Below are positions 1,263 through 49,529 of a DNA stretch of 64,000 bases, piece by piece. Origin of the DNA: a plasmid; the NCBI RefSeq assembly GCF_055900595.2, contig NZ_JBVWEU010000002.1. One strand, given 5' to 3'. Every line of letters starts with the position of its first letter. Position 1 is the stretch's first letter. The notes below the pieces were generated by a model. That model saw only the letters and a program-made list of their open reading frames with translations, made no database searches and was not told the DNA's origin. A program made the translations under genes and the position numbers.

Positions 1263-2003
1263 TCACCTCAGGGGAGGCAGTGTACGCAGGATCTCCGCAG
1301 CATCCCGCCCGTCACCGGTGAAAGGCACTGCCAGCGTGGCAGCCATATCCAGTGCAAACACTCTGGTATAAACCTCCATCGAACGTGGATCCCTGTGACC
1401 AGCCAGTGCCTGGATGACTTTCCGGGGCTGGCGGTGATAGAGCATGTGCATGATATAGCTGTGCCGGAAGGTGTGTGGTGTGACCGGAATCGAAAAGTGT
1501 ACTCCGTCAGCTTCGGCCCGTCTGACAGCCTGCTTCAGCCAGTTGCGCATGGTTTCGTCGGTCACGGCCCATAATGGTTCACGACGACGGGGCCGGGTGG
1601 TGATCATCCAGCTTTCCATCTGCCTGACATAGCTTATATCTGTCAGCGGAACCAGGCGCACTTCATCTTTTGGCGGGCGTCCGCGTCGCGCACGCACTTT
1701 TTCGGACAGGATCCGCACAAACGGTCTTACTCCATTCAGGTCAAATGATTCCGGCGTCAGCATCCGGGCTTCGCCAATACGCATTCCGGTATTCCAGAGG
1801 GTGGCGAACAGCATATGGTGACGCTGATCCGGCATATAGAAAAGAAGGGCACTCACTTCCGGGGCCAGCAGGTAGGCCGGTGTGGCCCCCGTGGAAGTGG
1901 CCATTCTTCTCAGGGAGAGCGCTGTTGCAAAATCCACCCCCGGCGCAATGGGTAACAGGGAGACGCGTTCTGGTGAATTCTGCAGGGGAATGACATTGTT
2001 CAT
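1263..2003 (-). CDS. int: Tyrosine site-specific recombinase (phage-integrase family), the RepFIB-associated int/resolvase
   Basis: 246-aa ORF; C-terminal segments [13 protein letters not shown] and [11 protein letters not shown] fit the R-H-R-Y catalytic region of tyrosine recombinases; position next to RepFIB. Confidence 0.75.
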
Positions 2004-2686
2004 GAGTTATTTTTCACGTAGCACACGCACTGTTTATGGATACAGGTATTCTGACCTGAACGCCCGGATCCTTCCACGACAATAAATCGCAGCGCGCGGA
2101 TCCTTTTGTTTGATTATCACGCATTATTGCGGGTAAAACCAAATACGTAAAGGCGCATTTTGCCGCTGGGATCCCGTCTTAAGCCAGTCATGGTGCGGGC
2201 TGAGGGCTGGTTTACCGTTTTTGGGAGAATTGGGGTAATGCCAGGACAGGCAGAAACGGAGAAAAAATCCTGCAGACGCCCTTAAAAGACAACTGAAAAT
2301 TTCTGACTCCATATTCCTCTGGTTTCAGACTGCTTAATCACATCATCAACCTGATACATAACAAACAGATTCTGTTCACAGAATGAACAATTAAGTAAAT
2401 AGTTAGATTATGCGAAAAAGTTACAGATATTTCTCACCATCGTTATTGAATAATATGTCTTCACACAAACAATATTAATATTTTGAGTGTAAGCCCTGAC
2501 TCAAAGAAAGAAATGTCTGTTTTCGGAATCAAAAATATATAGTTATCAAAATACATTAATTTCAAATTTGAAATTAATGTAAAACGATTTAGTAAATGTT
2601 ATGATATTATAAATCTACTCCTCCATGTTTAGAGGAGTATTTGCAGACTGGACGCTCTTATATAGTTACTTACCTTTATACATATT

Positions 2687-3589
2687 CTAACATAAGCATT
2701 TACCAACCTTACAGGGAACAGACCATAGTAGTTTATATTTCCATTCAGGTCTGAATGCACCGATAGAATATATCATCTTTTTATTATTATCCTGACAATA
2801 CCTTCGTGCTTTATCTATATTCAGCCACATAAGGACACTTCCCGGACTTAGTTTCATGCAATTCTCATCATTCAGAACTGCACCATTTGGAACGTCATAA
2901 TAAACATTACATGAGCTTTCAGATTTCAGTACTATATCAATAGCACACGGTTTATTATCCCAGAATAGCACATGGCCAAACATAAGTTCTCGTAAGTGAG
3001 AAATAAACATTAACAGATTATCATATTCGTAGCAAGGTAGGGTACCTCCAAACCGGGAATGAAAAAGTGATATATAAGAGCTGGATATTTCTTTATCGGA
3101 TAACTGGCTTATACACTTAATCTCTCCGCCATTCCTGATAAATCTCTGGATTTCATTTCGGCGAGTTTTTTCAAATTTAGGTGAAAAAGATTCCTTTATA
3201 ATACAATTTTGTTTTTTTCTGGCTATTTTCCATGTTGCATTGATAATATTTTGTTTATTTATAATTGATAATTTATTAGTTTTATCCGGAAAAAAACATC
3301 TTGCATGTGGGGAAAAAGGAATTAATACCTCATCAGATGAAAGAGGATAAGACCTTCTTGCCATTATCCCAATTTGTTTTCCATTGCACAGAAAATATGA
3401 GCCTTTGATATCACCATCTTTTTCATAGTGAAAAAAATCAAACTTCCAGTCATGATGTATCATAAAGTATGAAACAACATCCGGATGCATGTTTACACTA
3501 CCACCGTATTTTTCAAAAGTTTTTTTGTACGTTTCGAATGTAGATGGTTTCCAGGCCGTAATAATGCGCTTTATATTTTTAATTGACAA
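2687..3589 (-). CDS. mig-14: Mig-14-like protein
   Basis: 300-aa ORF in a visibly AT-rich islet directly downstream of hlyF on the same strand; call rests mainly on the conserved hlyF/ompT neighbourhood of ColV-type plasmids. Confidence 0.5.
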   Translation of the reverse strand: MSIKNIKRIITAWKPSTFETYKKTFEKYGGSVNMHPDVVSYFMIHHDWKFDFFHYEKDGDIKGSYFLCNGKQIGIMARRSYPLSSDEVLIPFSPHARCFFPDKTNKLSIINKQNIINATWKIARKKQNCIIKESFSPKFEKTRRNEIQRFIRNGGEIKCISQLSDKEISSSYISLFHSRFGGTLPCYEYDNLLMFISHLRELMFGHVLFWDNKPCAIDIVLKSESSCNVYYDVPNGAVLNDENCMKLSPGSVLMWLNIDKARRYCQDNNKKMIYSIGAFRPEWKYKLLWSVPCKVGKCLC

Positions 3590-3657
3590 AGTTATATCCT
3601 CGGCGTTTTTATATATTATGAGTGCAACACCAACAATAATTCTGATTATGATAAATA

Positions 3658-4773
3658 TTATTTAAAATCAACTTCCATTTGTTGTTGAATTGAAAGGTGT
3701 TTTGTCGTTTCTATACAGTATTTAATATAATCAGTAAACTTTGGCGGTTTAGGCATTCCGATACTCAGTAGCTTGTCGTTACTGAAACAAACATTGAGCA
3801 TACTGAACGCTCCATATAAACGAATGGCTTTTAACATAAGGCGTTCGTTACAGGGACCAAAAATATTTTTAAAGTCATGACGGCTCATTGCCAGTATGTC
3901 ATAACTGACTTTAGTATATCTGTCTCCAACAGGAACACAGTTCAAAGCACGGGCTACAGCTTCGTCAATAGCAGAGAACGTCACACTACTTTCTTTACCT
4001 GCTGATATATGAACAATCTCACCATTAATTAACGAGCTTTCAAGCAACATTAGCAATGCATCAGCACAATAATCTACAGGGATAACATCTATTTTATCAT
4101 CCAGAGAGCACATAAATTTTTGCAACATTAACCCCATTCTGAATACCCAGAAAATACTGGTTGAAGGTAAGCACCCTAAACGACTGTGGCCAACAATAAT
4201 TGATGGTCGGGCAACCAACAAAGGTAAATCAGGACACTGCTTACGCATCAGATATTCTATTGTTGCTTTTGAATGCGTATACTCCACTAAATGTTCACCT
4301 GTTTCTGATGAAGCAGACTCTTCCTTAACTAGCGACCCCGTATGAGGTGTACAAGACATAGCAGTACCAACATGAAGGAAGCGTTTCAGTCCTGCCACTT
4401 TTGCCATTCTTCTTGCAAAAGCAAGTGTACCTGTAACATTCACATTCCATATAAAAGGATTATTACCAAAAGAAGCTATAGCCGCACAGTTTATAACATG
4501 AGTGACTTCATCAAGACGAGGATCCATGAGAAAGGCTTCCGGATTATTTAGATCCCCAGGCAAGATGTTATCATTAGTTAATGCATGCAACCTTTCCTCA
4601 CAAACATTAAATTTACGCATATTTTCTTTAATTCTTTCCAGTCCCGCTTGTGGAGTAGGTGCTCGTACTAAAAGTAGCAAATTTATATTATTACAGTTAT
4701 CCAGCAGCTTATCCAGGACCGCGCCACCAAGAAATCCTGTTGCACCTGTAAGTAATAACAATTTCATATCCAA
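3658..4773 (-). CDS. hlyF: HlyF-like NAD(P)-binding epimerase/dehydratase-fold protein
   Basis: 371-aa ORF with N-terminal Rossmann motif LLLTGATGFLGGAVL; AT-rich; adjacent to plasmid ompT and mig-14-like. Confidence 0.7.
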   Translation of the reverse strand: MDMKLLLLTGATGFLGGAVLDKLLDNCNNINLLLLVRAPTPQAGLERIKENMRKFNVCEERLHALTNDNILPGDLNNPEAFLMDPRLDEVTHVINCAAIASFGNNPFIWNVNVTGTLAFARRMAKVAGLKRFLHVGTAMSCTPHTGSLVKEESASSETGEHLVEYTHSKATIEYLMRKQCPDLPLLVARPSIIVGHSRLGCLPSTSIFWVFRMGLMLQKFMCSLDDKIDVIPVDYCADALLMLLESSLINGEIVHISAGKESSVTFSAIDEAVARALNCVPVGDRYTKVSYDILAMSRHDFKNIFGPCNERLMLKAIRLYGAFSMLNVCFSNDKLLSIGMPKPPKFTDYIKYCIETTKHLSIQQQMEVDFK

Positions 4774-5199
4774 CCTCTTTTGTTTTCATGTAATCATTAT
4801 AAAAATAAATTATCTTACATAAACAATTATTAAACAAAATCAAGAGAGATTAAATGTAAAAACAATGTTTGTTTTTATATGGCAGGATCCTTCAGGTTAT
4901 TGCGTATGTTTTTATTGGATGTTCTGCTTATTATTGATGAGTAATAGCATTATAATAAAGTTCATATTGTTAACATCGCTTATCAATTATTTTTATGTCG
5001 ATAACACTGTGTCGTTATGCATGAAGAGTGGCAGGGCAGCATCGTTAAAAATACAAGAGTTAACAGAAACACTTTTATCGTGGCGCACATATATCCTCCA
5101 CATATTATAAAAAATAAAAAGACCACCATCAGAAGTGCTGGCCTTTTGTTTATCATATTTAAAGTGTCATGAAAAAATTAAAAACAGGCATGTTTCAGG

Positions 5200-6159
5200 T
5201 TAAAAATAATACTTCAGACCAGCTGTGGTCATAAAGTTATAGCTTTCAATGCCTGCACCATTTTTGGTGTGATCAGATATATTCAAATTTCTGGAGTACA
5301 GAGAAGTATCACCTTTCTTATTAGTAATACGGTTCCATGTTCCTTCGACATAAACTTTAGCTGCAGGTGTAATATAATAACCAGCATGTAGTGAGACAGA
5401 GTAATAGTTCTGATTATTTACATCGCTACGATAGGTGATCCTTTTCTCAGGGTTGTAATGCTCATCATTATCCGATGCCTTCACCCATCCGCTATATTTG
5501 AAACTCCCACCGAACTCAAAGCTATCATACAGATAATTACCGGTTAACCCTATATAGGGCATTTTAAAGTGTTGTTTGTAGCCTATAGCTCTTTCACCAT
5601 CTGGAAATGATCCCGTTTCATCCCGGAAGCCTCCCTCACTACTATAGATATAAGAGCCTCCTTTTGCTGTAAAGCTATAACGATTTTCCTGGTAACCAGC
5701 CATAAGACCTAACTGATAGTCTGGTTGATTCAGGAGCCATCCCTTAATATTCAGGTCGAATTCATTAGCAAAATTTAGACGGGTATTCGGATGTTTACTC
5801 TCATCAGTCCAGGTTCCGGGATTGCTCGTATCCAGCCAGTCCCTGTCCACCATATTGCCTCCACGACCAGCTAATGTTGTCCACCCTGAGGCACCGACAG
5901 ATACTCTGGGTAACAGATCCCAGTTAAATGCCCCCTTGACAATTGGCGCATTACTGTATTTCCAGTCCAGCTGGCTGGCTTTGCGCCCTTTTTCTTCAGG
6001 CAGATAAACCCGTTCTTTGGCCTTGCCACTTAAAGTGCCAAAATCAATCTCCGTACTGATTTTCTCCGGTGTAAAAGAAAGCCCAGTATCAGAAGCCAGT
6101 GCAGCAAACGCTACAGGAGCTGAGAGTGCAGTAGCAAGAATCTTTAAGTACATAGACAA
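5200..6159 (-). CDS. ompT: Omptin-family outer-membrane protease (plasmid OmpT)
   Basis: 319-aa ORF with signal peptide; long stretches closely similar to E. coli OmpT as I recall it (e.g. WTDESKHPNTRLNFANEFDLNIKGWLL, DNDEHYNPEKRITYRS). Confidence 0.85.
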   Translation of the reverse strand: MSMYLKILATALSAPVAFAALASDTGLSFTPEKISTEIDFGTLSGKAKERVYLPEEKGRKASQLDWKYSNAPIVKGAFNWDLLPRVSVGASGWTTLAGRGGNMVDRDWLDTSNPGTWTDESKHPNTRLNFANEFDLNIKGWLLNQPDYQLGLMAGYQENRYSFTAKGGSYIYSSEGGFRDETGSFPDGERAIGYKQHFKMPYIGLTGNYLYDSFEFGGSFKYSGWVKASDNDEHYNPEKRITYRSDVNNQNYYSVSLHAGYYITPAAKVYVEGTWNRITNKKGDTSLYSRNLNISDHTKNGAGIESYNFMTTAGLKYYF

Positions 6160-22702: not shown

Positions 22703-22960
22703 TCAGCCCTGTTTAAAGCCCGGCTTGCCGTTTTTGGCTCGCCATTCCTTCACTTCTTTTACGATACCTTCAGGACTGTCCTCACGGTCATCCCTTGGAT
22801 AATAAATAAGATCAGAACCATCAGGGTGTTCAGCTAATCGACGAAATTCATCCACTAATTTATCATCATCAGCCTCAGTTTCACCTTCAGCCCGGCAGAT
22901 TTTTCTGACGAACTCCAGAAACTCCGCCTCGGTATAGTCAGAAATCGTTTTCTTTTCCAT
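22703..22960 (-). CDS. Nuclease-colicin-type immunity protein (Im family)
   Basis: 85 aa; [12 protein letters not shown] ... [12 protein letters not shown] ... GKPGFKQG closely parallels the DNase-colicin immunity proteins as I recall them; starts one nt after the toxin stop. Confidence 0.75.
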
Positions 22961-23296
22961 TTACTTATTTCCTCTGTGAATTTCAATATGATGCTTGGGT
23001 GTCACTACCCTGAGATTATCGATATCATAAACAGCGCCACCATCCGTAACGCGCTTGATATGGTGCAGTTCGAAACGTTCTCGTTCACCTACACGCTCTG
23101 ATTCAGGAACAAACGAAGATTTACCTTTTGTAACCAGAACCTTATTCTGATTTTTGAACTGCTTCAGTAACTCCGGATCTTTCCCCACTTCCATCCACAA
23201 CGCCTTACGGAACCACGGCAGCCTGGAGGCTGCAAATCGGGGTGTGGCAGAATATGAGCTTTCAGAGTAACCATCCAGAATGAGTTCCCATGTCAC
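22961..23296 (-). CDS. HNH DNase toxin domain (colicin E9/pyocin-type C-terminal nuclease), probably a truncated remnant
   Basis: 111 aa ending ...RERFELHHIKRVTDGGAVYDIDNLRVVTPKHHIEIHRGNK (HNH motif); no translocation or receptor domains upstream. Confidence 0.6.
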   Translation of the reverse strand: MTWELILDGYSESSYSATPRFAASRLPWFRKALWMEVGKDPELLKQFKNQNKVLVTKGKSSFVPESERVGERERFELHHIKRVTDGGAVYDIDNLRVVTPKHHIEIHRGNK

Positions 23297-23946
23297 ACAA
23301 CCTAGAGCACCAGAAAGTCCACACCAGAATGGTGAAAGAGGTTCTGAAAGCCGTCGCCAGAGCCAATAATCACCCTTATCAGTCCGTATTTACAGACTTT
23401 ATCGCCGGTCATCCCTCCTGCACGGTCTGTTTCTGGGAAACCTTCAACAAAATGTACCCGGATTCACCGTACGAATACGTCACGTTCTGCCATACCTGCC
23501 GTCGTTTGATTTATACGAAACAGAAGCGGAGATGAAGGCGGATGACCCGAAGTGGTGGTGATTTTCAGCCCCGACCGCTGAAACGCCTGTTCACAATGTC
23601 GCGGTATAAAAATCGACCATGCAGAGAGAGAAACCACCGGAGTGGTGGGAAAAGCAGAAAGGCTCACGTGGCATAAGGCGTGGACAGCGGTATCGTCTGG
23701 TTTTTCAATTTCCTATACGTGAACACAATCTGCAATTCGGTATACAGCGAACCTGCCACCATAAGTGTTTTTATACCACTTAACTGGCTCAGCACCGGGG
23801 GCAGGCTTCATTCTGAATTCATCGCGCAGACGTCCTTTCGAGAAACACCTGTCTTCGGCAATCTCCTGCGCACGTCTGGTGACCAGCTCATCATTATTCA
23901 TGGTTCTTGCATCTCCGTCAGACGTTTTTATATCCGGACAGCCCCT

Positions 23947-26579: not shown

Positions 26580-27248
26580 ATGACGATATCCATTTTTCAG
26601 GCTCAACCCTTTGAATTACCCTTTGATCCGTGCACAACGGCACTGATCATGATAGACATGCAACGTGATTTTGTCGAAGCAGGAGGGTTTGGAGAAGCAT
26701 TGGGTAATGATGTTTCACTGGTTCGCACGGCTATCGCACCATGTAAAGAAGTTCTGGCAGCCGCACGTCAAAAAGGAATTATGGTTATTCATACCCGTGA
26801 AGGCCATCGTGAAGACTTAAGCGACTGCCCATCAGCCAAACTGACGCGCGGCGGAAAAACCTTTATTGGTGAACCAGGACCGATGGGACGCATTCTGGTC
26901 AGGGGTGAAGCAGGTCATGACATCATTCCTGAACTGTATCCGGTGACAGGCGAACCTGTGATTGATAAACCCGGTAAAGGCGCTTTTTATCAAACCGACT
27001 TACATCTGATTTTGCAAAAGCGTGGTATCAAGACACTTATTGTTTGTGGCGTGACTACCGAAGTTTGCGTAACCACCACCGTGCGTGAAGCAAATGACCG
27101 TGGCTATGAATGCATCATACCGGAAGATTGCGTTGGCTCCTATTTCCCGGAATTCCAGAAATACGCCCTTGAGATGATCAAAGCACAAGGTGCCATTTTC
27201 GGTTGGGTTACTGATTCCAAAGCCATTATTGCAGGTCTGGAAGGCTAA
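26580..27248 (+). CDS. Isochorismatase-family cysteine hydrolase (amidase-type)
   Basis: Start taken at ATG 26580 (GGAG about 7 nt upstream); MIDMQRDF (Asp), DKPGKGAF (Lys) and LIVCGVTTEVCV (Cys) match the family catalytic triad pattern. Confidence 0.7.
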   Translation: MTISIFQAQPFELPFDPCTTALIMIDMQRDFVEAGGFGEALGNDVSLVRTAIAPCKEVLAAARQKGIMVIHTREGHREDLSDCPSAKLTRGGKTFIGEPGPMGRILVRGEAGHDIIPELYPVTGEPVIDKPGKGAFYQTDLHLILQKRGIKTLIVCGVTTEVCVTTTVREANDRGYECIIPEDCVGSYFPEFQKYALEMIKAQGAIFGWVTDSKAIIAGLEG

Positions 27249-27253
27249 CGCCG

Positions 27254-28114
27254 ATGGTACAGGTTACGCTTTGTGCATCGTCGTTGGGATATCTTTTCCC
27301 GCAGAATGAAACGCAAGATTTACGTCTACATAGCGCTTTTAAACATGCGGTAAATCTGTATTCAGACGCGGGAACATTCATCACTCTGTTGTGTGCGCAA
27401 ACGTATCTGAATCTCCCTGATGCTGCCAGAGTCTGGCTACCTGAATGTTGGGACTGGCGAAGAGAGATTGCCCATTCAGATCCCATTCAATTAACCCCAG
27501 GCTTACTGCGGACACCTCGATTTTGTGTGGCGCTCGATAACGCAACGCTCTGGCAGTCGCCATTTGTGGGGGGAATGCTGACTCTTGAGGCATTGCCTTT
27601 GGTTTTCCAGCACTACCCCACGATAGCATCGCAACGGCTTTTATTTTGTCTGGAGCATAACGTTCAAAGCACATTGCACCTGCCGGATAGTCTCACGCAC
27701 CAGGGATTAGATATTATGGAACATCCAGATGCGCTGGAACGCCAGGTACCCCAACTGATCGGCTTTGGTAAAGGCTTAACGCCCGATGGAGATGACTATT
27801 TGCTGGGCTATCTGGCAGCCCTCTGGTTATGGCAACTCCCTGCACCACTTGCCAATCATCAATACAGGTTGCAGAAGGCAATTGAACAACATGCACACAA
27901 CACCACGGATATAAGTCGTCATTATCTGCAACGTGCGCTTCAGGGACATTTTTCAGAACCGATTTGCCGGTTACTCGCACAACTGGTTGGGAGCGCATCG
28001 GCAATGACAATCGCATCCTGTACAGAACAGATCATGCAATTTGGCGCAACATCAGGAGTAAATTGCCTTGCAGGAATGCTGCATGGATTTCGAACCCTGA
28101 ACACCATGAATTGA
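27254..28114 (+). CDS. DUF2877-family protein (YlbF/YahE-like)
   Basis: 286 aa; same position relative to the FdrA-like gene as in cluster 2; motif GLTPDGDDYLLGYL shared with the 43104 paralog (GLTPSSDDYLVGL). Confidence 0.55.
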   Translation: MVQVTLCASSLGYLFPQNETQDLRLHSAFKHAVNLYSDAGTFITLLCAQTYLNLPDAARVWLPECWDWRREIAHSDPIQLTPGLLRTPRFCVALDNATLWQSPFVGGMLTLEALPLVFQHYPTIASQRLLFCLEHNVQSTLHLPDSLTHQGLDIMEHPDALERQVPQLIGFGKGLTPDGDDYLLGYLAALWLWQLPAPLANHQYRLQKAIEQHAHNTTDISRHYLQRALQGHFSEPICRLLAQLVGSASAMTIASCTEQIMQFGATSGVNCLAGMLHGFRTLNTMN

Positions 28115-28208
28115 TTTCAACCTTTTCTCCCGTAGCCCGTTTATGGGGCTACACGGGGATGCTTTGCCCGAATTTTGCTATCGGGCGGAATGGAACAGGC
28201 GTAACAGC

Positions 28209-29768
28209 ATGAAAGTTAAATATAAAGTTTTCAGTAATCTTTATCAGGACTCAGTTTCTCTGATGCAGATTTCCGCGCAAATCAGCAAGTTGCCCGGTAT
28301 TCAACAGGCCTCGGTCGTCATGGGAACACCCAATAATCTCGAGCAATTGCGCGATGCGGGTCTGGGTAACGAAATCAACGCCAGTCCCAATGATTTAGTG
28401 ATTGCAGTCATGGGTGAAGAAGATATTTGCAATGAAGCACTGCTACTGGCCCAGCAACGTCTGACCAGCAAACCCGATGATGAAACGGATTGTGGCATTA
28501 AATCACCGGAAAAGGTCAGCCTGGAAATGGCACTGGAAGCTGAACCCGAAGCCAACCTGGCACTCATTTCTGTACCGGGAGACTACGCCGCCGCCGAAGC
28601 AATTAAAGCGTTAAACCTCGGAATGAACGTGATGATGTTCAGCGATAACGTCAGTATCGGGCAGGAAAAATACATCAAAACGCTTGCCCGAGAACGTCAG
28701 CGCATCGTAATGGGACCTGACTGTGGAACCGCCATTGTTAACGGCATTCCGTTAGGCTTCGCTAATGTGGTGAAACGCGGAGCAATTGGTGTTATTGGCG
28801 CGTCAGGCACCGGGCTACAGGAAGTGACTTGCCGAATCGACCAGCTCGGAGCGGGTATTTCTCAGGCGTTGGGAACAGGCGGACATGATCTCAGTGAAGA
28901 GATTGGTGGAATATCAATGCTCTTTGCTTTAGATGCGCTGGCACAAGACGATGAAACTCACGTGATTGTGCTTATTTCAAAACCGCCTTCACCGATCGTT
29001 GCCCGGACTATTCTGGAGCGCGCCGAGGCTTGTGGAAAACCCGTGGTGGTGAATTTCCTCGGGGCGAATCCGCATGATCTGGCACGTCCCAATATCACTG
29101 CCGCCACCACACTTGCCAGCGCCGCCGACATCGCTGTGGCGTTACTGAATGATCAGCCACTTCCGGCTGTCGAGAACGAGGTTTCCTGCGACGATCTCAC
29201 AATGTTACAAAACGCCTGCCAAAGTCTGCCAGTCCATCGCCAGGCGATACGCGGTGTTTTCGCCGGAGGAACCTTCTGTTACGAAGCTCAGCTTATCTGC
29301 CAACAAAAGGGATTCCATGCCGCCTCCAATACGCCAGTTGCGGGTAATCGTGCTCTGGCAAATATCTGGCAAAGTGAAGATCATACACTGATTGATATGG
29401 GGGACGATGATTTCACCCGTGGCAAACCGCATCCAATGATCGACCCGACTCTGCGCAATCAACGTCTGCTCAACGAACTCAACGACTCACATACTGCCGT
29501 TGTGTTATTCGACCTTGTACTTGGTTATGGCACCTCCGCTACGCCTGTCAGCGAATTACTGGACCAACTTTCACACATCGACATGAATAATGCACCGTTG
29601 CTGATTGCCCACGTTTGCGGAACAGAAGCTGATCCGCAAATACGCAGTCAGCAGATAAGCTCACTACAAAATGCAGGCGTCATCATTGCCAACAGCAATG
29701 CACAGGCGGCGCTATGGGCCAGCACCGTTGCACAGACTCAGTTGCAGAAAAAGGAGCTAAATGCATGA
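28209..29768 (+). CDS. FdrA-like protein (acyl-CoA-synthetase/succinyl-CoA-synthetase-alpha fold)
   Basis: Start at ATG 28209 (MKVKYKVFSNLYQDSVSLMQIS...); clear paralog of ORF 43912-45459 (e.g. MGPDCGTAIVNG, GASGTGLQE, TRGKPHPMIDPT). Confidence 0.7.
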   Translation: MKVKYKVFSNLYQDSVSLMQISAQISKLPGIQQASVVMGTPNNLEQLRDAGLGNEINASPNDLVIAVMGEEDICNEALLLAQQRLTSKPDDETDCGIKSPEKVSLEMALEAEPEANLALISVPGDYAAAEAIKALNLGMNVMMFSDNVSIGQEKYIKTLARERQRIVMGPDCGTAIVNGIPLGFANVVKRGAIGVIGASGTGLQEVTCRIDQLGAGISQALGTGGHDLSEEIGGISMLFALDALAQDDETHVIVLISKPPSPIVARTILERAEACGKPVVVNFLGANPHDLARPNITAATTLASAADIAVALLNDQPLPAVENEVSCDDLTMLQNACQSLPVHRQAIRGVFAGGTFCYEAQLICQQKGFHAASNTPVAGNRALANIWQSEDHTLIDMGDDDFTRGKPHPMIDPTLRNQRLLNELNDSHTAVVLFDLVLGYGTSATPVSELLDQLSHIDMNNAPLLIAHVCGTEADPQIRSQQISSLQNAGVIIANSNAQAALWASTVAQTQLQKKELNA

Positions 29769-31189
29769 ATACCTTATTTAATCAGCCTTTGAAGGTCGTG
29801 AACGCGGGGCTACACAGTTTTGCTGACAATATTCAACATGCAGGAGGGCATGCTATATCCCTCAACTGGCAGCCGCCAGCACAAGGTGATATTGACACCG
29901 GTTTGGTTCTGGCGTCATTACTACGCCATCCACTGGTAGAAAGTGCCAACCAAATCGCCATGACACGTTATCTCGAAGCACAGCCCGTGTTGGTGGATGT
30001 CATGCTCGCTAAAGAAGCCATCCCCGAAATGGCTGAACAAAAACGCATTTTACACTCTGGTCCACCGATTGCCTGGGAAGATATGTGTGGTCCGGTAAAA
30101 GGGGCGATTATTGGTGCCATGCTGTACGAAGGCTGGGCTACAAGCCAGAAAGACGCAGAAAACCAGATAAACGCAGGCGAAATCGACCTTGCTCCTTGTC
30201 ATCATTATCACGCGGTTGGACCAATGGCAGGCATTATCAGCCCGTCGATGCCATTATGGGTGGTGGAAAACAAAACCAACGGCCATCGTACTTTTAGCAA
30301 TTTCAATGAGGGTCTGGGTAAGGTTCTCCGTTTTGGTGCCAATAACGATGAAGTTCTCAATCGTCTGGCCTGGATGCGTGATGAACTGGCGCCGGCCATG
30401 AAAGCAGCAATCGCACAACACGGCGAGCTGGAACTCAAGCCATTAATGGCGCAGGCGCTGCATATGGGGGATGAAGTTCATAACCGCAATGCTGCCGCTA
30501 CCGGTTTGCTGATTAAGCGCCTGCTCCCGGCATTGCTGGCCTGCTCTCTTCCACAGGAACATATCCAGCGCGTCGTGGCATTTATCACAGGTAACGATCA
30601 CTTCTTCCTCAATTTGTCGATGGCTGCCTGTAAAGCAATGATGGATGCCGCCGCCAATGTACCGTTCAGTTCAATGGTTACGGTGATGGCGCGTAACGGG
30701 GTGAATTTTGGTATTCGGCTTTCCGGTACTGGCGATCGCTGGTTTCAGGCTCCTGCCAATGCAGTTGAAGGTCTGTTCTTCCCCGGATTTGGCGTTGACG
30801 ACGCCGCTTCTGACCTGGGTGATAGCGCAATTACTGAAACCGCAGGTGTGGGTGGCTTCGCGATGGCGTCATCTCCGGCGATTGTTAAATTTGTGGGAGG
30901 CACCCCTGCCGATGCCACCAATAACAGCCGTCGGATGCAGGCAATCACCCTCGGCGGTAACCCCGCATTTACACTTCCAGCCCTCAATTTTGCCCCCACC
31001 GCAGCAGGTATTGATGCGTGTAAAGTGACCGATCGTGGCATTTTACCGGTCATCAATACGGGTATCGCCCACAAACAAGCGGGAGTCGGACAAATTGGTG
31101 CCGGGATCACCACTGCACCGATGGCCTGTTTTGTCGCTGCTGTACGTGAACTGGCGGAGATCGTCGCAAAGGAGAACCATCATGGTTAA
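29765..31189 (+). CDS. DUF1116-family protein (YlbE/YahG-like)
   Basis: Start ATG overlaps the upstream stop; paralog of 45459-46877 (LFNQPL..VN.G, HSGPPI.WE.MCG, GDSAITET.GVGGFAMA). Confidence 0.65.
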   Translation: MNTLFNQPLKVVNAGLHSFADNIQHAGGHAISLNWQPPAQGDIDTGLVLASLLRHPLVESANQIAMTRYLEAQPVLVDVMLAKEAIPEMAEQKRILHSGPPIAWEDMCGPVKGAIIGAMLYEGWATSQKDAENQINAGEIDLAPCHHYHAVGPMAGIISPSMPLWVVENKTNGHRTFSNFNEGLGKVLRFGANNDEVLNRLAWMRDELAPAMKAAIAQHGELELKPLMAQALHMGDEVHNRNAAATGLLIKRLLPALLACSLPQEHIQRVVAFITGNDHFFLNLSMAACKAMMDAAANVPFSSMVTVMARNGVNFGIRLSGTGDRWFQAPANAVEGLFFPGFGVDDAASDLGDSAITETAGVGGFAMASSPAIVKFVGGTPADATNNSRRMQAITLGGNPAFTLPALNFAPTAAGIDACKVTDRGILPVINTGIAHKQAGVGQIGAGITTAPMACFVAAVRELAEIVAKENHHG

Positions 31190-32138
31190 GCCACTGGCTG
31201 TCGTCGCGGTTGGCGGCAATGCGCTCATTCAGGACGATAAACGCAATAGTATTCCCGATCAATATGTTGCAGTAATGGAAAGCGTGCAGCATATCGTTGA
31301 TATGGTTGAAGCCGGATGGGAGCTGGTGCTAACCCATGGTAATGGCCCGCAGGTAGGCTTTATTCTGCGCCGCTCTGAACTTGCCAGTAACGAAGTTTCT
31401 CCGGTTCCTCTGGATTACGCCGTGGGTGATACCCAAGGCGCCATTGGATACATGTTCCAGAAAGCGCTGCATAACGAATTGGCTCGCCGTGGCATAAACA
31501 AACCGGTAATTGCCCTGGTGACACAAACGCGAGTCAGCCCATATGACGATGCTTTCGCCAGCCCCAGTAAACCGATTGGCGCGTTTCTTGATGAAGAAAC
31601 AGCACAACAACGCCAACAACAACTCGGCTGGACGCTGATGGAGGACGCCGGGCGTGGTTGGCGGCGTACAGTTCCCTCTCCTGCGCCACTGGAAATTATT
31701 GAGCACCACACCATCGCTCACCTTGTGCGCCAGGGATATCTGGTTATAGCCTGCGGCGGCGGCGGTATACCTGTGGTGCGAGACGGGCAACAACTGAAAG
31801 GTGTGGAAGCCGTGATCGATAAAGACCTGGCCTCCGCATTGCTCGCCAGTCAGTTAGGCGCTGATCTGCTGGTGATCCCCACCGGTGTAGAAAAAGTGGC
31901 GATTCACTTTGGTACACCACAACAACAATGGCTCGACGCTATCAGCGTCTACGAAGCTCAAACGCTGTTGCAGGAAGGTCAGTTTGGTGTCGGCAGTATG
32001 CAACCCAAAGTGGAAGCCATTATTGATTTCATCAATGCCAGCCAGCAACAAGGCAAACAGGCCAGCGGACTGATTACTTCACCGCAAACCATAAAAGCAG
32101 CCCTGGCACATCAGAGCGGAACATGGATAACCCTTTAA
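31182..32138 (+). CDS. Carbamate kinase
   Basis: Start at ATG 31182 (overlaps upstream gene by 8 nt); AVGGNAL ... THGNGPQVG ... ACGGGGIPVV motifs. Confidence 0.8.
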   Translation: MVKPLAVVAVGGNALIQDDKRNSIPDQYVAVMESVQHIVDMVEAGWELVLTHGNGPQVGFILRRSELASNEVSPVPLDYAVGDTQGAIGYMFQKALHNELARRGINKPVIALVTQTRVSPYDDAFASPSKPIGAFLDEETAQQRQQQLGWTLMEDAGRGWRRTVPSPAPLEIIEHHTIAHLVRQGYLVIACGGGGIPVVRDGQQLKGVEAVIDKDLASALLASQLGADLLVIPTGVEKVAIHFGTPQQQWLDAISVYEAQTLLQEGQFGVGSMQPKVEAIIDFINASQQQGKQASGLITSPQTIKAALAHQSGTWITL

Positions 32139-43018: not shown

Positions 43019-43103
43019 CAACAGGAGCACGATTATCGCTATATTATCACGGCAATCTTTTCGGGCACTAACCGCAGACTGCGCGTTTCTCACTTTTCGG
43101 GGA

Positions 43104-43952
43104 ATGGGCCAGGTTGAACAGGTTTTTTCCCATGCGGTAAATCTGTTAATACCTGAACAGCAGCGACTGCTGACGTTACTGAGTGAGGATTGTGATAACG
43201 CACCTAACAGTTGTCGTTTAGCACTGACACATTATGAAGACCTTTTTCACCCCGGTGAACAGGTCAATTTTAGCGGGTCTGGAATAACTGTTGGAAATGA
43301 TAAATGGATAGAAATAACCGGTTGTCAGATGTGGCGAATACCACGGTGGACATCTGATTCAGCAAGCCTTGCCAAAGTCGGCTGGCAGCATTGGGAAGAG
43401 TTTATCCGCCAACAACTAAGAAGCAACGACACATTATTTCTGTACCAGGGTGACAATCCATTTTATCAGGAAATTTCTCGCCAATTACTCAACCGCCGAA
43501 AAAATTTGCTGAAGGCGTTGTGTACAGGAGAAAACATCACTGCGGCAGTCAACCAGTTAATTGGTCTTGGAATAGGGCTGACGCCATCATCGGATGATTA
43601 TTTAGTAGGTTTAAGCACTATTTTATTTATTCAAGGACATCCACTAAGGAAGTATAGATACGATTTCTTAGCAGCATTACAACTTGCAGGAAATAACATA
43701 ACGCTTCTCAGCAAAATAACGTTAGAGGAAGCATTTAATCAGCGTTATCGGGAAAGAGTCGGACGGCTACTGAACCAATTTATTACTGAGCCACAACCCA
43801 TTTCTACGCAATATGTTACTGACATAAAAAATATAGGCTCAAGTTCTGGATGCGACATGCTGTATGGCATGGCGGATGCCTGCGCCCTGAGCCACAGGTC
43901 CGGAGGTAATTATGTCAATCAGGATAGTTGTAAAAAAAAACACGTATTTTGA
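43104..43952 (+). CDS. DUF2877-family protein (YahE/YlbF-like)
   Basis: 282 aa; paralog of 27254-28114. Confidence 0.55.
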   Translation: MGQVEQVFSHAVNLLIPEQQRLLTLLSEDCDNAPNSCRLALTHYEDLFHPGEQVNFSGSGITVGNDKWIEITGCQMWRIPRWTSDSASLAKVGWQHWEEFIRQQLRSNDTLFLYQGDNPFYQEISRQLLNRRKNLLKALCTGENITAAVNQLIGLGIGLTPSSDDYLVGLSTILFIQGHPLRKYRYDFLAALQLAGNNITLLSKITLEEAFNQRYRERVGRLLNQFITEPQPISTQYVTDIKNIGSSSGCDMLYGMADACALSHRSGGNYVNQDSCKKKHVF

Positions 43953-45459
43953 TTCTGTTTCACTGATGTCTATCTCCACGCGCGCAAATAAGCTTGATGG
44001 AGTTGAGCAGGCATTTGTTGCTATGGCGACAGAGATGAATAAGGGGGTGCTGAAGAATCTCGGTCTGCTGACCCCTGAGCTGGAAGAGGCGAAAAGTGGC
44101 GATCTGATGATTGTCATTAAAGGTACCAGCGAGGAGGCGAACGAGCGGACGCTAATAGCGATTGATGAGCTGTTTGCGCATAAAGAACAGGGAGGCCAGC
44201 ACGAAGCACGCTATGCCACGATTGCCAGTGCGAAGAAGCATGCTCCAGAGAGTAATCTGGCGGTGATCTCTGTCAATGGCCTGTTTGCTGCTCGTGAAGC
44301 TCGTCAGGCACTACAAAATAACCTCAATGTTATGCTGTTTTCTGACAACGTCTCTCTTGAGGACGAGCTGGAACTCAAGCATCTGGCACATGAAAAAGGG
44401 TTGTTGATGATGGGGCCTGATTGTGGAACCGCCATCATTAACGGCGCAGCGTTGTGTTTTGGCAATGCAGTGCGTCGCGGCAACATCGGAATCATTGGTG
44501 CCTCCGGTACGGGTAGCCAGGAGCTGAGCGTACGCATTCACGAATTTGGCGGCGGGATTTCCCAGCTGATTGGGACAGGTGGACGCGATATGAGTGAAAA
44601 AATTGGCGGCCTGATGATGCTTGACGCGATTAGCATGCTGGAGGCCGATCCACAAACTGAGATCATTACGCTTATATCCAAACCTCCTGCACCAGCGGTA
44701 GCCCGTAAGGTGCTGGAACGTGCGCGCACCTGTCACAAGCCTGTGGTGGTGTGTTTCCTCGGACGTGAGTCCACCCCTGCGGATGAAGAAGGCCTACAGT
44801 TTGCCCGCGGTACTAAAGAGGCTGCCTTGAAAGCGGTACTGTTGACTGGTGTGAAAAAAGAGAGTCTGGATTTGCATCCGCTCAACTGGCAGCTGATTGA
44901 AGAGGTTCGCTCCCGTCTGACTCCACAACAAAAGTATATCCGTGGCCTGTTCTGTGGTGGCACGTTATGCGATGAAGCGATGTTTACTGCCATGGAAAAA
45001 CTCTCGGATGTGTATAGCAATATTCACCCGAATCCGGCGTTCCGCCTTACAGATCTCAACCGTAGCGTGGCGCATACCTTCCTCGATTTCGGCGATGATT
45101 ATTTTACCAACGGCAAACCACATCCGATGATCGATCCCACCAATCGCATTACCCGGCTCTTGCAGGAAGCACAGGATCCTGAAGTTGGCGTGATCGTGAT
45201 GGACTTCATTCTTGGATTTGGATCACATGAAGATCCGGTTGGAGTGATGCTGGATACAATTGTTGAAGCCAAAGAAATTGCTGCCGCAGACGGTCGCCCG
45301 CTTGAGATCCTCGGCTATGTGCTGGGAACCGACCTTGATACACCGTCGCTGAAAAAACAGTGTCAGATGTTGACCGATGCCGGGGTTATTTGGGCAAGCA
45401 GTAGCACCAACACCGGATTACTGGCACGTGAATTTATATTTAAAGGGGAGGAAGGCTGA
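43912..45459 (+). CDS. FdrA-like protein (YahF-like)
   Basis: 515 aa; paralog of 28209-29768. Confidence 0.7.
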   Translation: MSIRIVVKKNTYFDSVSLMSISTRANKLDGVEQAFVAMATEMNKGVLKNLGLLTPELEEAKSGDLMIVIKGTSEEANERTLIAIDELFAHKEQGGQHEARYATIASAKKHAPESNLAVISVNGLFAAREARQALQNNLNVMLFSDNVSLEDELELKHLAHEKGLLMMGPDCGTAIINGAALCFGNAVRRGNIGIIGASGTGSQELSVRIHEFGGGISQLIGTGGRDMSEKIGGLMMLDAISMLEADPQTEIITLISKPPAPAVARKVLERARTCHKPVVVCFLGRESTPADEEGLQFARGTKEAALKAVLLTGVKKESLDLHPLNWQLIEEVRSRLTPQQKYIRGLFCGGTLCDEAMFTAMEKLSDVYSNIHPNPAFRLTDLNRSVAHTFLDFGDDYFTNGKPHPMIDPTNRITRLLQEAQDPEVGVIVMDFILGFGSHEDPVGVMLDTIVEAKEIAAADGRPLEILGYVLGTDLDTPSLKKQCQMLTDAGVIWASSSTNTGLLAREFIFKGEEG

Positions 45460-46877
45460 TGAGCCAGACACTGTTTAATCAGCCGCTGAACGTTATTAAT
45501 GTCGGTATCGAAATGTTCAGCGATGACATGAAAAAGCAGAATGTACCGGTAACCCAACTTGACTGGACACCGCCAGGCCAAGGAAACATACAAGTGGTAA
45601 CGGCACTGGACGACATTGCCGCTTCACCACTGGCAGACAAAATTGCAGCTGCTAATCAGCTGGCGCTGGAACGCATTATCCAGTCGCATCCTGTGCTAAT
45701 TGGCTATGATCAGGCGATCAACGTCGTGCCGGGTATGACCCGTAACACTATCCTTCACGCCGGGCCGCCAATCCACTGGGAAAAAATGTGCGGCGCAATG
45801 AAGGGCGCAGTAACCGGGGCTCTGGTATTTGAAGGACTGGCGAAAGATCTGGATGATGCCGCCGAACTAGCTGCTTCAGGTGAAATCATCTTCTCTCCGT
45901 GCCACGAACATGACTGTGTCGGCTCAATGGCGGGTGTCACGTCTGCATCGATGTTTATGCACATCGTCGAGAACAAAACCTATGGAAACCGCGCATATAC
46001 CAATATGAGCGAGCAGATGGCAAAGATCCTGCGTATGGGCGCTAACGACCAGAGCGTTATAGAGCGTCTTAACTGGATGCGAGATGTACTGGGACCTATG
46101 TTGCGCGATGCTATGAAGCTGGCGGGCGAAATCGATCTGCACTTGATGTTAGCGCAGGCGCTGCATATGGGCGATGAGTGCCATAACCGCAACAACGCCG
46201 GGACGGCGCTGCTGATTCAGACGCTGACGCCGTGGATTATTCAGACTGGCTACCCTGTTGAGCAGCAGCGTGAGGTGTTCGAGTTTGTCCTCAGTAGTGA
46301 TTACTTCTCAGGACCAACATGGATGGCAATGTGTAAAGCCGCAATGGACGCTGCGCACGGCATTGAATACAGCACCGTGGTGACAACGATGGCACGCAAT
46401 GGTGTTGAGTTCGGTCTTCGTATTAGCGGTTTGCCGGGCCAGTGGTTTACCGGTCCGGCGCAGCAGGTGATTGGGCCGATGTTTGCGGGCTATAAGCTAG
46501 AGGATTCCGGACGTGATATCGGTGATAGTGCAATTACCGAAACCTACGGCGTTGGCGGTTTCGCTATGGCGACGGCACCAGCTATTGTGTCACTGGTGGG
46601 CGGAACAGTTGAGGAAGCTATTGATTTCTCACGTAAAATGAGAGAAATCACTCTCGGAGAAAACCCCAACGTCACCATTCCCCTGCTTGGTTTTATGGGC
46701 GTACCGACCGCTATCGATATTACACGTGTAGGCAGTACAGGCATTCTGCCGGTAATTAACACAGCCATTGCGCACAAAGACGCAGGGATCGGCATGATCG
46801 GCGCAGGAATTGTTCACCCGCCGTTCACTTGTTTTGAAAAGGCGATCCTCAACTGGCGTGACCACTACTGCCAATAA
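45459..46877 (+). CDS. DUF1116-family protein (YahG/YlbE-like)
   Basis: 472 aa; start overlaps upstream stop; paralog of 29765-31189. Confidence 0.65.
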   Translation: MSQTLFNQPLNVINVGIEMFSDDMKKQNVPVTQLDWTPPGQGNIQVVTALDDIAASPLADKIAAANQLALERIIQSHPVLIGYDQAINVVPGMTRNTILHAGPPIHWEKMCGAMKGAVTGALVFEGLAKDLDDAAELAASGEIIFSPCHEHDCVGSMAGVTSASMFMHIVENKTYGNRAYTNMSEQMAKILRMGANDQSVIERLNWMRDVLGPMLRDAMKLAGEIDLHLMLAQALHMGDECHNRNNAGTALLIQTLTPWIIQTGYPVEQQREVFEFVLSSDYFSGPTWMAMCKAAMDAAHGIEYSTVVTTMARNGVEFGLRISGLPGQWFTGPAQQVIGPMFAGYKLEDSGRDIGDSAITETYGVGGFAMATAPAIVSLVGGTVEEAIDFSRKMREITLGENPNVTIPLLGFMGVPTAIDITRVGSTGILPVINTAIAHKDAGIGMIGAGIVHPPFTCFEKAILNWRDHYCQ

Positions 46878-46989
46878 CAATAACCGGGGCTAACGCAGTT
46901 AGCCCCACAGTAGCGGAAAACGTTGTTTACCTTCAGGGCTGGGCGATCTCCATGATCGCAAACGATGCTTAACCTGTTAAGGAGATTCC

Positions 46990-48540
46990 ATGAACAGCAT
47001 AAAACTAGAATGGAAACGTGGTGACTGGGCGGCTTACTTTGGACTGATGACCAACAATCTGACTAACCTGCTGACAATGATGGGTCTGCTAATTTTTGTC
47101 GTCGGAATCCCTACTGAAATTGTCTATGGACGCATTGCGCCTGCCTTTGGTCTTGCAGTGCTGGCGGCCAGTGTCTGCTACTCCTGGTTTGGTCTACAGA
47201 TGGTGAAGAAAACCGGTCGTAGCGATGTAACGGCGCTGCCGTCTGGACCGAGCGCACCCTCAATCTTTACCGTGACATTCCTGGTGCTGATGCCGGTTTA
47301 TCAGCAAACCAAAGATGCCAACTTTGCTATTCAGATAGGATTGGTGTGGTGCTTTGTCGAAGCGTTGATCCTGGTCGGTGGCTCCTTCCTGGGTGAGACT
47401 ATCCGCAAGATGATCCCGCGTACAGTGCTGCTTTCTTGTCTGTCCGGACTGGGGTTATTACTGCTGGCAATGAACCCGATGCTGCAAGCGTTCGAAGCGC
47501 CGACAGTTTCTTTCATCGTCCTGTTATTGATCTTCATTAACTGGTTCGGTAAGAAGCCGATTTTTCCCCATATTCCTACCGGTTTGCTGTTGCTGATTGC
47601 TGGTACGTCCCTAGCGTGGATATCCGGTTTACAAAGCCCGGAAGACATTAAAGCGTCGATGTCTTCCTTCGGCTTCAACCCGCCGGAAATTCATGTAAGG
47701 AGCTTCCTGCAAGGTTTGCCGCACGCTCTGCCATATCTGGCTTCTGCAGTTCCTTTGGGCCTGGCTAACTACATTTTTGACCTCGAGAACATTGAAAGTG
47801 CGCACGCGGCTGGTGATGAATACAACACCCGTAAGGTCATGATGGCGAACGGCTTTGCCTCCATGCTCGGTTGCATGCTGGGTAATCCGTTCCCGGTAAC
47901 CGTATATGTTGGGCATGCAGGCTGGAAAGCTATGGGCGCTAGTATCTGCTATACCCTCGCATCAGGCATCACTATGTTCCTGGTGCCATTGTTTGGGTTG
48001 GGCGCGTTTATGCTCGCCATTATTCCCATGACTGCTATAGTGCCAATTCTGGTTTTTATCGGTGTGGTAACCGCCAATCAGGTGGTGCGAGAAACTCCTA
48101 AAGTCGAGGTTCCCGTCATTTTCATCTGTCTGTTCCCATGGGTCGCCAACTGGGCATTGACCATCGTTAACAGCGTGATGGGCGCAGCCGGAACATCCGC
48201 TGAGAAACTTGGTAGCGACCTGTTGCACAGCAAAGGCGTCTATTACGATGGACTGATGCATCTGGGAAGCGGTGCACCGCTGGCCAGCATGCTGTGGGGA
48301 TGCATTGCTATCTTTGCCATTATGAATAAGCCGCTGCGCGGGGCGATAGCTGCATCCTTTGGAGCACTGTTATCGCTGTTTGGCGTGATTCACTCCCCAG
48401 CGGTTGGCTTTGCGGAAGGCAGCTCGATTGTGTTTGTTGTGGCCTACCTGATGATGCTTGCTATGTTTGCCCTCAAGCATGTTATTGATAGCCGTGAAAC
48501 AGTGGCTGCGTCTGAGCAGGAAGAGACTAAAACGACCTGA
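46990..48540 (+). CDS. Polytopic permease (nucleobase/NCS2- or AzgA-like; family uncertain)
   Basis: 516 aa with 12 or more hydrophobic segments; sits between the DUF1116 and carbamate kinase genes. Confidence 0.5.
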   Translation: MNSIKLEWKRGDWAAYFGLMTNNLTNLLTMMGLLIFVVGIPTEIVYGRIAPAFGLAVLAASVCYSWFGLQMVKKTGRSDVTALPSGPSAPSIFTVTFLVLMPVYQQTKDANFAIQIGLVWCFVEALILVGGSFLGETIRKMIPRTVLLSCLSGLGLLLLAMNPMLQAFEAPTVSFIVLLLIFINWFGKKPIFPHIPTGLLLLIAGTSLAWISGLQSPEDIKASMSSFGFNPPEIHVRSFLQGLPHALPYLASAVPLGLANYIFDLENIESAHAAGDEYNTRKVMMANGFASMLGCMLGNPFPVTVYVGHAGWKAMGASICYTLASGITMFLVPLFGLGAFMLAIIPMTAIVPILVFIGVVTANQVVRETPKVEVPVIFICLFPWVANWALTIVNSVMGAAGTSAEKLGSDLLHSKGVYYDGLMHLGSGAPLASMLWGCIAIFAIMNKPLRGAIAASFGALLSLFGVIHSPAVGFAEGSSIVFVVAYLMMLAMFALKHVIDSRETVAASEQEETKTT

Positions 48541-48566
48541 ATAGCCTGCAAACGGAAGATAATTCT

Positions 48567-49529
48567 ATGAAAGAACTTGTGGTCGTTGCCATTGGTGGCA
48601 ACAGCATTATCAAAGATAACGCCAGCCAGTCGATTGAGCATCAGGCGGAGGCGGTGAAGGCCGTCGCCGATACGGTTCTGGAAATGCTGGCTTCCGATTA
48701 CGACATTGTGCTGACCCACGGCAACGGGCCGCAGGTCGGTCTGGATTTACGCCGCGCGGAGATAGCCCACGAGCGCGAAGGGCTACCCTTAACGCCGCTG
48801 GCGAACTGTGTGGCGGATACGCAAGGCGGCATTGGCTATCTGATCCAGCAGGCGCTGAACAACCGGCTGGCGCCTCACGGCGAGAAAAAAGCCGTCACCG
48901 TGGTGACTCAGGTGGAAGTGGATAAAAACGATCCGGGGTTTGTCCATCCCACCAAGCCCATCGGTGCATTCTTTAGTGAAAACCAGCGTGATGAACTACA
49001 AAAGGCAAACCCTGACTGGCGTTTTGTTGAAGATGCCGGACGGGGCTATCGCCGCGTGGTCGCCTCGCCGGAACCGAAACGTATTGTCGAAGCACCTGCC
49101 ATTAAGACTCTGATCCAGCAAGGCTTTGTGGTGATTGGCGCGGGCGGCGGTGGCATTCCGGTGGTGCGTACTGACGCAGGGGATTACCAAAGCGTGGACG
49201 CGGTTATCGACAAAGATCTCTCTAGCGCGCTACTGGCTCGCGAAATTCACGCCGACATTCTGGTGATCACCACCGGCGTGGAAAAAGTGAGTATTCATTT
49301 TGGGAAACCCAACCAGCATGCACTGGATACAGTGGATGTCCTAACGATGGCCCGTTACATGCAGGAGGGTCACTTCCCGCCTGGGAGTATGTTACCGAAG
49401 ATTCTTGCCAGTCTGGAGTTCCTGGAACGTGGAGGTAAAAGAGTGATTATCACCACGCCTGAATGCCTGTCCGCGGCACTGCGTGGCGAAACAGGCACCC
49501 ATATTATCCACTCCCAAGAGGAGACGTAA
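48567..49529 (+). CDS. Carbamate kinase (YahI-like)
   Basis: 320 aa; AIGGNSI ... THGNGPQVG ... GAGGGGIPVV; paralog of 31182-32138. Confidence 0.8.
   Translation: MKELVVVAIGGNSIIKDNASQSIEHQAEAVKAVADTVLEMLASDYDIVLTHGNGPQVGLDLRRAEIAHEREGLPLTPLANCVADTQGGIGYLIQQALNNRLAPHGEKKAVTVVTQVEVDKNDPGFVHPTKPIGAFFSENQRDELQKANPDWRFVEDAGRGYRRVVASPEPKRIVEAPAIKTLIQQGFVVIGAGGGGIPVVRTDAGDYQSVDAVIDKDLSSALLAREIHADILVITTGVEKVSIHFGKPNQHALDTVDVLTMARYMQEGHFPPGSMLPKILASLEFLERGGKRVIITTPECLSAALRGETGTHIIHSQEET

Follow-up and report, generated by a model that had tools for sequence, protein, structure and literature searches.

In a 64,000-nucleotide stretch of plasmid DNA (contig NZ_JBVWEU010000002.1 of NCBI RefSeq assembly GCF_055900595.2; the whole stretch is referred to here as the window), two adjoining open reading frames (ORFs) on the minus strand encode a 111-residue protein related to the HNH-type DNase domains of colicins and pyocins (22961–23296, GTG start) and an 85-residue protein of the family that confers immunity to such DNases (22703–22960). 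Our analysis indicates that the two are very probably what is left of an SOS-inducible HNH-DNase bacteriocin operon, which has decayed to an orphan immunity gene preceded by a dead fragment of its toxin gene. Both ORFs had been placed at these positions in a preliminary description made from the sequence alone, and both proved to be real, with family matches far beyond chance. The parts of the remnant and its boundaries are as follows.

22703–22960, minus strand: complete colicin/pyocin DNase-immunity gene (an orphan immunity gene) of 85 amino acids, identified by PF01320, by its match to Im2 and as WP_000412701.1

22961–23212, minus strand: 3′ remnant of a bacteriocin gene, 83 codons plus stop, identified by PF21431, by colicins E2/E9, by the Salmonella protein P0013 and by tblastn

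23213–23296, minus strand: foreign 28-codon N-terminal extension of the 111-residue ORF, identified by alignment with the IncI1 plasmid NZ_OP378630

23210–23213, unstranded: recombination or deletion junction with (G)TTC microhomology, identified by a four-way DNA alignment

22686–22702, minus strand: last 17 bp of operon-derived DNA past the immunity stop codon, identified by blastn against the Salmonella contig L008

The 111-residue ORF matches the Col-Pyo_DNase family (PF21431, E 3.8e-32) and the DNase chains of colicins E2 and E9 (E 2.5e-28 and 1.2e-27, respectively). All of the HNH catalytic residues that the preliminary description had read in this ORF align with those of E2/E9 and are conserved, H102, H103, N118, H127 and H131 of E9 corresponding to H78, H79, N94, H103 and H107 of the ORF; R54, R96 and E100 (E9 numbering) are conserved as well. 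The label of HNH DNase toxin domain is therefore correct as to the enzyme and its motif, but not as to the domain. The match is restricted to ORF residues 28–108, which cover positions 44–124 of the 124-position PF21431 model and residues 52–133 of the 134-residue E2/E9 chains, and the bacteriocin-derived part comprises residues 29–111 only (83 codons), the first 28 codons being foreign. A complete domain has ~124–134 residues, including an N-terminal basic loop (R5 in E9, R447 in E7), and its first ~52 residues (~40%) are absent from the ORF; the retained part encodes the immunity-binding exosite and the HNH motif. In the colicin E7 nuclease (NColE7) the N-terminal loop is required along with the HNH motif for activity; the protein is destabilised by deletions at its N-terminus, and on its own the HNH motif fails to fold correctly (PMC4104000). 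The preliminary description had also noted that translocation and receptor-binding domains were missing, and none was found beside the nuclease: a typical protein of this kind exceeds 350 residues as against the 111 of the ORF, and tblastn of a 1,220-residue relative matched only 23212–22964 in the window, corresponding to its last 83 residues. Because the N-terminal basic loop, ~40% of the fold and all of the delivery domains are gone, the toxin fragment is almost certainly inactive, with neither export nor import. One residue difference, G95E, was considered as a degenerative change and rejected, since intact Klebsiella aerogenes homologues carry glutamate there too.

What the operon looked like when whole can be judged from its intact relatives. 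A word-indexed protein search gave only 12 short fragments, and it was an exhaustive HMMER search over 1.84 billion representatives that found P0013 (ENN6995750.1), a Salmonella enterica ‘S-type pyocin domain-containing protein’ of more than 905 residues, cut at the contig end, which matches the toxin remnant at 90% identity over its final 83 residues. Its contig (L008) continues with an 85-residue immunity gene and then a Lysis_col gene. A cluster-mate of P0013, the 1,220-residue P0162 (EIM2852953.1; contig L013), is likewise followed by immunity and lysis genes, on a ColE1-like plasmid contig that carries Rop, MobC/NikA-like, BrnT/BrnA and ParE genes. The domain order in both relatives is Pyocin_S plus Col-Pyo_DNase, then the 85-residue immunity gene, then Lysis_col, and in the intact Salmonella operon a LexA box (CTGTATATAAATACAG) precedes the ATG by 54 nt. 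This operon resembles the remnant in its 85-residue immunity protein, in an identical helix II of that protein, and in the same stop/start overlap and organisation of the ribosome-binding site; unlike the remnant, it possesses the LexA box, a Pyocin_S delivery region of ~1,140 residues, the first ~52 residues of the DNase and Lysis_col. In the exosite segment (KQFKNQNKVLVTKGKSSFVPESERVG-R-R), two residues differ between the remnant and P0013. Because DNA identity is only 79%, the Salmonella operon is a relative of the remnant and not its direct parent. No intact bacteriocin above ~76–77% DNA identity was found in PLSDB or the E. coli genomes, the best intact ones in PLSDB being an Enterobacter S-pyocin-like gene and ColE2. 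The colicin E2/E9–Im2/Im9 systems of ColE plasmids share with the remnant the PF21431 fold, the HNH residues, PF01320 and the helix-III motif of the immunity protein, but they have translocation and receptor-binding domains, a lysis gene and an SOS promoter, and over 81 residues the toxin remnant shares no more than 58% identity with E2.

Comparison of the C-termini of P0013 and P0162, which fall in the same 90%-identity cluster, showed near-identical N- and C-terminal parts of the DNase flanking exosite segments (residues ~66–98) that are wholly different, as are the immunity proteins; this looks like a specificity-module swap. Immunity proteins that cluster with that of the window at 90% identity were also seen in prophage homologues from Klebsiella aerogenes and metagenome contigs (L009–L012, ~1700–5260) and on the Erwinia tasmaniensis plasmid CU468133 (L014, 1876–5258), in a lambdoid prophage setting that runs from a lambda-P-like replication gene to ninB/ninE/Q. 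There the immunity gene is preceded by a gene for a 640–690-residue protein with a C-terminal colicin-type DNase (63–66% identical to the remnant), which itself follows a tail-fibre-like gene (Gp34_trimer plus Peptidase_S74). The arrangement looks like a prophage/plasmid nuclease bacteriocin coupled to a tail-fibre-like gene.

The upstream end of the remnant abuts DNA of IncI1 origin. Positions 23595–23210 of the window are 97.7% identical to the IncI1 plasmid NZ_OP378630 (L003 2205–2591) and comprise a small hypothetical gene, the divergent yagA as far as its seventh nucleotide and, between the two, a 73-nt intergenic region. Degraded colicin sequence had been thought worth seeking at 23297–23700; none is present, the stretch being IncI1 backbone at this same identity. 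IncI1 homology stops at 23210 and bacteriocin homology begins at 23213. In the four-way alignment the IncI1 side reads ...GCCGTGGTTC and the bacteriocin side starts (G)TTCCGTAAGG, the (G)TTC being common to yagA codons 2–3 and a bacteriocin Phe codon and forming a microhomology of 3–4 nt. The foreign extension of the ORF thus crosses the yagA start, the 73-nt region between the hypothetical gene and yagA, and 7 nt antisense to the divergent hypothetical gene. The yagA start codon (GTG, 23216–23214) lies in a different frame from the DNase, and translation in the yagA frame ends after three codons (TAA, 23207–23205). The DNase frame is open for 28 codons upstream, to a GTG antisense in the adjoining gene; by our estimate, ~27% of random 27-codon stretches would be expected to stay open. 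RefSeq gene models for the ORF vary between 111 residues (WP_011402682.1) and 77 residues starting from the ATG at 23194 (WP_000451769.1). Judged by these alignments, the 111-residue ORF is a chimera, in which the first 28 codons are open by chance and are not bacteriocin sequence.

At the downstream end, blastn aligned window positions 23213–22686 with 2466–2993 of L008 at 78.6% identity, the homology ending 17 bp beyond the immunity stop codon; the whole remnant spans 22686–23212, about 527 bp. In L008, 128 nt separate the immunity gene from the start of the lysis gene, and homology with the window stops well before the latter. The preliminary description was right that a lysis gene is missing: tblastn with the Lysis_col protein of the closest intact operon gave no significant match in the 64-kb window, and the end of the neighbouring gene, eitD, lies only 77 bp beyond the immunity gene. 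The nearest LexA box (CTGT-N8-ACAG) is at 26934, with none within about 3.6 kb of the remnant, and scans with NCBIfam and Rfam returned nothing besides a sub-threshold match to a type VI secretion system (T6SS) effector DNase. Across the window as a whole there are five perfect CTGT-N8-ACAG palindromes (2030, 12063, 26934, 38340 and 53464), where 0.7 would be expected by shuffling.

Of the two readings offered in the preliminary description, a decayed nuclease bacteriocin operon retaining immunity or a minimal toxin–immunity pair, the former is supported by the clean junction, by the lack of other operon remains and by the shorter stumps of sister plasmids described below. Illegitimate recombination at the 3–4 nt microhomology stripped away the promoter, the domains for receptor binding and translocation, and the DNase as far as residue ~52, and what was left of the toxin gene, 83 codons, became fused to the DNA that precedes yagA. 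The lysis gene was lost through another break, which lies 17 bp beyond the end of the immunity gene. Operon decay is ordinary and is well explained here.

The immunity gene has fared differently from the toxin. Placed directly after the toxin and assigned from the outset to the DNase-immunity type, the 85-residue ORF indeed spans PF01320 end to end (model positions 2–82 of 82, E 1.5e-38 in a profile search). Its best solved relative is Im2 (2no8_A, E 1.8e-45), to which it is 85.5% identical, compared with 86.7% for an Enterobacter homologue, and the RefSeq name of the product (WP_000412701.1) is ‘bacteriocin immunity protein’. The immunity ATG sits directly after the toxin TAA (22961/22960), and a Shine–Dalgarno sequence, GAGG at 22974–22971, lies 10 nt before this ATG within the toxin remnant, where it is encoded by the ...HRG codons of the toxin, the same as in native operons. 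The protein is a full-length, four-helix member of the Im family; its helix-III motif (D51, Y54, Y55, P56) is conserved, and a 19-residue stretch there is identical to Im2. Twelve substitutions separate the protein from Im2, six of them in helix II (residues 28–44): A28E, E31A, N34D, R38D, E41R and T44A, with D33 unchanged. Helix II residues D33, N34 and R38 are those that we take, from the Im2/Im9 literature, to determine specificity, and in the alignment this Im2 signature is not matched by the 85-residue protein. Its 16-residue helix II is instead identical to that of the immunity protein linked to P0013 on the Salmonella contig L008. By sequence, then, the protein is not an Im2 allele, and from N34D, R38D, the other helix II differences and the identity with L008 we infer that the remnant toxin–immunity pair is of the P0013 specificity type and not of the E2 type. 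The immunity ORF, its ribosome-binding site and the specificity helix are all intact.

The window belongs to an IncF ColV-type virulence plasmid. Colinearity with pAPEC-O2-211A-ColV is 99.9% from 15321 on; the remnant and its surroundings, over 1.8 kb, are 99.9% identical to pAPEC-O2-ColV (the plasmid of avian pathogenic E. coli (APEC) IMT5155) and to many other plasmids; and ets/RepFIB and tra/finO/RepFII genes are found at the window ends. The window does not include the cva operon. Two features flank the remnant.

21438–22625, plus strand: eitD, encoding a major facilitator superfamily transporter; it closes the eitABCD iron-transport operon and is transcribed towards the immunity gene

23290–23595, plus strand: IncI1-derived backbone patch, identified by the IncI1 alignment, holding the frameshifted hypothetical gene that is divergent from yagA

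A perfect, G+C-rich hairpin of 8–9 bp (22629–22650; AGAGCGGG-CTGTT-ACCCGCTCT) lies between eitD and the immunity gene, 4 nt past the eitD stop codon; a T-run is absent on both strands, and the hairpin could terminate both of the convergent transcripts. On the other side, positions 23290 to ~26121 hold a dense run of pseudogenes derived from IncI1 plasmids and insertion sequences (ISs), named here after the RefSeq annotation of the colinear plasmid: the frameshifted hypothetical gene, the N-terminal part of a 3′–5′ exonuclease, the C-terminal part of yacB, an ISEc43 transposase fragment, a frameshifted IS3-family transposase and the C-terminal part of the NikB relaxase. Elsewhere the plasmid carries two paralogous clusters, at 27254–32138 and ~43100–49400, each with DUF2877, fdrA acyl-CoA synthetase, DUF1116 and carbamate kinase genes, names that again follow the RefSeq annotation of the colinear plasmid.

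We surveyed 5,426 complete E. coli genomes with a 510-bp piece of the remnant as query. The piece was present, whole or in part, in 152 of them, almost all on plasmids; 99 held the whole piece at 100% identity, and about 50 held part of the immunity gene only. Among the eitD-positive plasmids of PLSDB, the full stump is kept in 75 of 223. Every remnant variant has the same junction with eitD, and the variants differ in their upstream ends.

Window form: immunity gene intact, with the 83-codon toxin stump

L006: immunity gene without its first 14 codons, with a foreign N-terminus gained and the change P63H

L007: immunity gene cut by IS1A

pHK17a-like IncF plasmids: remnant replaced by ISEcp1-blaCTX-M-14, homology stopping exactly at the immunity stop codon

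Other plasmids: homology ending at 22676, 22660 or 22652

In a sister lineage the immunity gene differs by 3 nt. pHK17a itself (NC_016039; L024 3504–5032, equivalent to window 22703) belongs to the ~70-kb IncF CTX-M-14 plasmids. The series of variants indicates that erosion has advanced from the upstream side, with the immunity gene posing no strong barrier to it. Strong selection for keeping the immunity gene seems not to operate, since the gene has been eroded or lost in sister plasmid lineages.

An analogous remnant was found on the Yersinia frederiksenii plasmid NZ_MT039225 (L023 5001–5616), in the form of a 118-residue chimeric ORF. As in the window, the end of this ORF is DNase (its last 78 residues, from E2 residue 58) and an intact 85-residue immunity protein follows, 92% identical to that of the window; unlike the window's, the Yersinia remnant has another foreign N-terminus, IS110-family elements on its flanks with a colicin-immunity gene, cui, nearby, and an Im2-like helix II. 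On these sequence differences it is a separate truncation event. In a set of ~30 short ORFs with DNase homology, seven unrelated ones (P0007, P0009, P0039, P0075, P0083, P0126 and P0137) start their homology at DNase residues 47–53, the site of the window junction, within conserved F-R-K/E-A-x-W codons. Truncation points near 47–53 may mark a recombination hot spot or a module boundary, or may equally be an artefact, the mild excess (7 of ~30) being confounded by query start, contig ends and gene calling.

We put at roughly even the chance that the immunity gene is still transcribed and that the protein, if made, would bind incoming P0013-type DNases at their exosite, as is usual for Im proteins. 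By way of this exosite it would be expected to neutralise DNase bacteriocins of the P0013 type tightly and E2-like ones weakly. The captured DNA upstream of yagA, now oriented towards the remnant, could supply transcription by read-through; alternatively, a weak promoter inside the retained 3′ end of the toxin gene could do so. A further proposal, that the gene serves as a working orphan defence protecting APEC and extraintestinal pathogenic E. coli (ExPEC) that carry ColV plasmids, in poultry or in the human gut, against a Salmonella enterica DNase bacteriocin, is a tentative one that we judge rather unlikely. If it were so, the ~250-bp toxin stump would persist because the signals for expressing the immunity gene lie within it, and the similar-sized Yersinia stump hints at the same constraint.

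Four observations weigh against a decayed operon with a dead toxin and a surviving immunity gene. In both consensus and relaxed scans, no sigma-70-like site scoring at least 8/12 was found upstream of the immunity gene on its strand, a scan that is uninformative in that authentic ColE2 (homologous region) and the Salmonella operon score equally poorly; −10-like TATGAT and GATAAT hexamers stand at homologous codons in the window and ColE2, with 7/12 each, and carry little weight. A parent with more than 90% DNA identity was not found in PLSDB, in the complete E. coli genomes or in protein searches. The ~100 full copies are essentially identical, and such conservation is silent on selection. Lastly, with the HNH residues and the exosite intact, the 77- or 111-residue product could conceivably have residual nicking activity.

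The main live alternative to the orphan immunity gene is that this gene, too, is silent junk. The remnant would then be a completely inert fossil of the same origin, its immunity gene silent or without benefit and awaiting deletion, and we rate this a little short of an even chance. It would account for the lack of a recognisable promoter or LexA box near the immunity gene in our scans, for at least four independent losses or truncations of immunity in sister eit plasmids, for the full stump being found in only a third of the eitD-positive PLSDB plasmids (75/223) and for the run of pseudogenes around the remnant. It is less readily reconciled with the intact state of the immunity ORF, the Shine–Dalgarno sequence and the helix-III residues, with the capture of the entire yagA upstream region in the correct orientation, with the presence of a cognate-type toxin in Salmonella, or with the independent Yersinia remnant, which keeps an intact immunity gene behind a toxin stump of ~78 codons.

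The second reading of the preliminary description, a minimal pair acting inside the cell, supposes that a short, active DNase is kept harmless by the immunity protein and that the pair stabilises the plasmid in an addiction-like manner. In its favour, neither the HNH catalytic residues nor the immunity-binding exosite is missing, the two genes are tightly juxtaposed and RefSeq annotates both as intact coding sequences. However, the N-terminal ~52 residues of the domain are absent, NColE7 needs its N-terminal loop and the HNH motif alone misfolds (PMC4104000), the N-terminus of the ORF is an accidental foreign read-through on whose start codon gene models do not agree, and both genes have been lost in sister plasmids. 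We consider such a pair very improbable and have set this reading aside. We give marginally less credence still to an orphan toxin-tip/immunity cassette in the style of T6SS, contact-dependent inhibition (CDI) or Rhs systems, which would persist as material for exchanging toxin ends by recombination. Databases contain many short DNase ORFs, and the NCBIfam model VPA1263 of a T6SS effector DNase matched with 84.6 bits, against a curated cutoff of 900. Yet the closest proteins, at 90% amino-acid identity, are bacteriocins of the Pyocin_S kind that come with lysis genes, DNA homology to them runs through the immunity gene and 17 bp of operon intergenic DNA, no full-length bacteriocin, T6SS, CDI or Rhs gene sharing upstream homology exists in the window, and the upstream junction is with unrelated yagA DNA; together these results effectively refute the cassette.

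E. coli plasmids are already on record as carrying immunity genes without a toxin, some of them adjoining bacteriocin genes that have lost most of their length (PMC12546727, Nat Commun 2025). That survey found orphan immunity on 243 plasmids, just one of the DNase type, and required >99% identity to toxin-adjacent immunity genes (PMC12546727). Like its orphans, the decayed operon described here consists of immunity without a working toxin, is borne by large virulence and antimicrobial-resistance plasmids and shows one truncation spread over many plasmids; unlike them, it has no intact cognate among E. coli plasmids, and it probably escaped the screen because of this. Our literature search found no paper describing the eitD-adjacent remnant, both genes of which have been annotated in databases since the deposition of pAPEC-O2-ColV (UniRef Q3L7G4_ECOLX).

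These findings bear on annotation, on surveys of immunity and on the ecology of ColV plasmids. The ‘HNH endonuclease signature motif containing protein’ of these plasmids should be flagged as a pseudogene fragment rather than as a nuclease or toxin. The gene beside it is a widespread DNase-type orphan immunity gene, of a kind that identity-based surveys needing an E. coli cognate toxin are likely to miss. If the immunity is not functional, the remnant is a case of routine operon erosion on a mosaic plasmid. If it is functional, major virulence plasmids of avian and human ExPEC would carry ready protection against a Salmonella-type nuclease bacteriocin, which would bear on the use of colicins or salmocins as antimicrobials in poultry.

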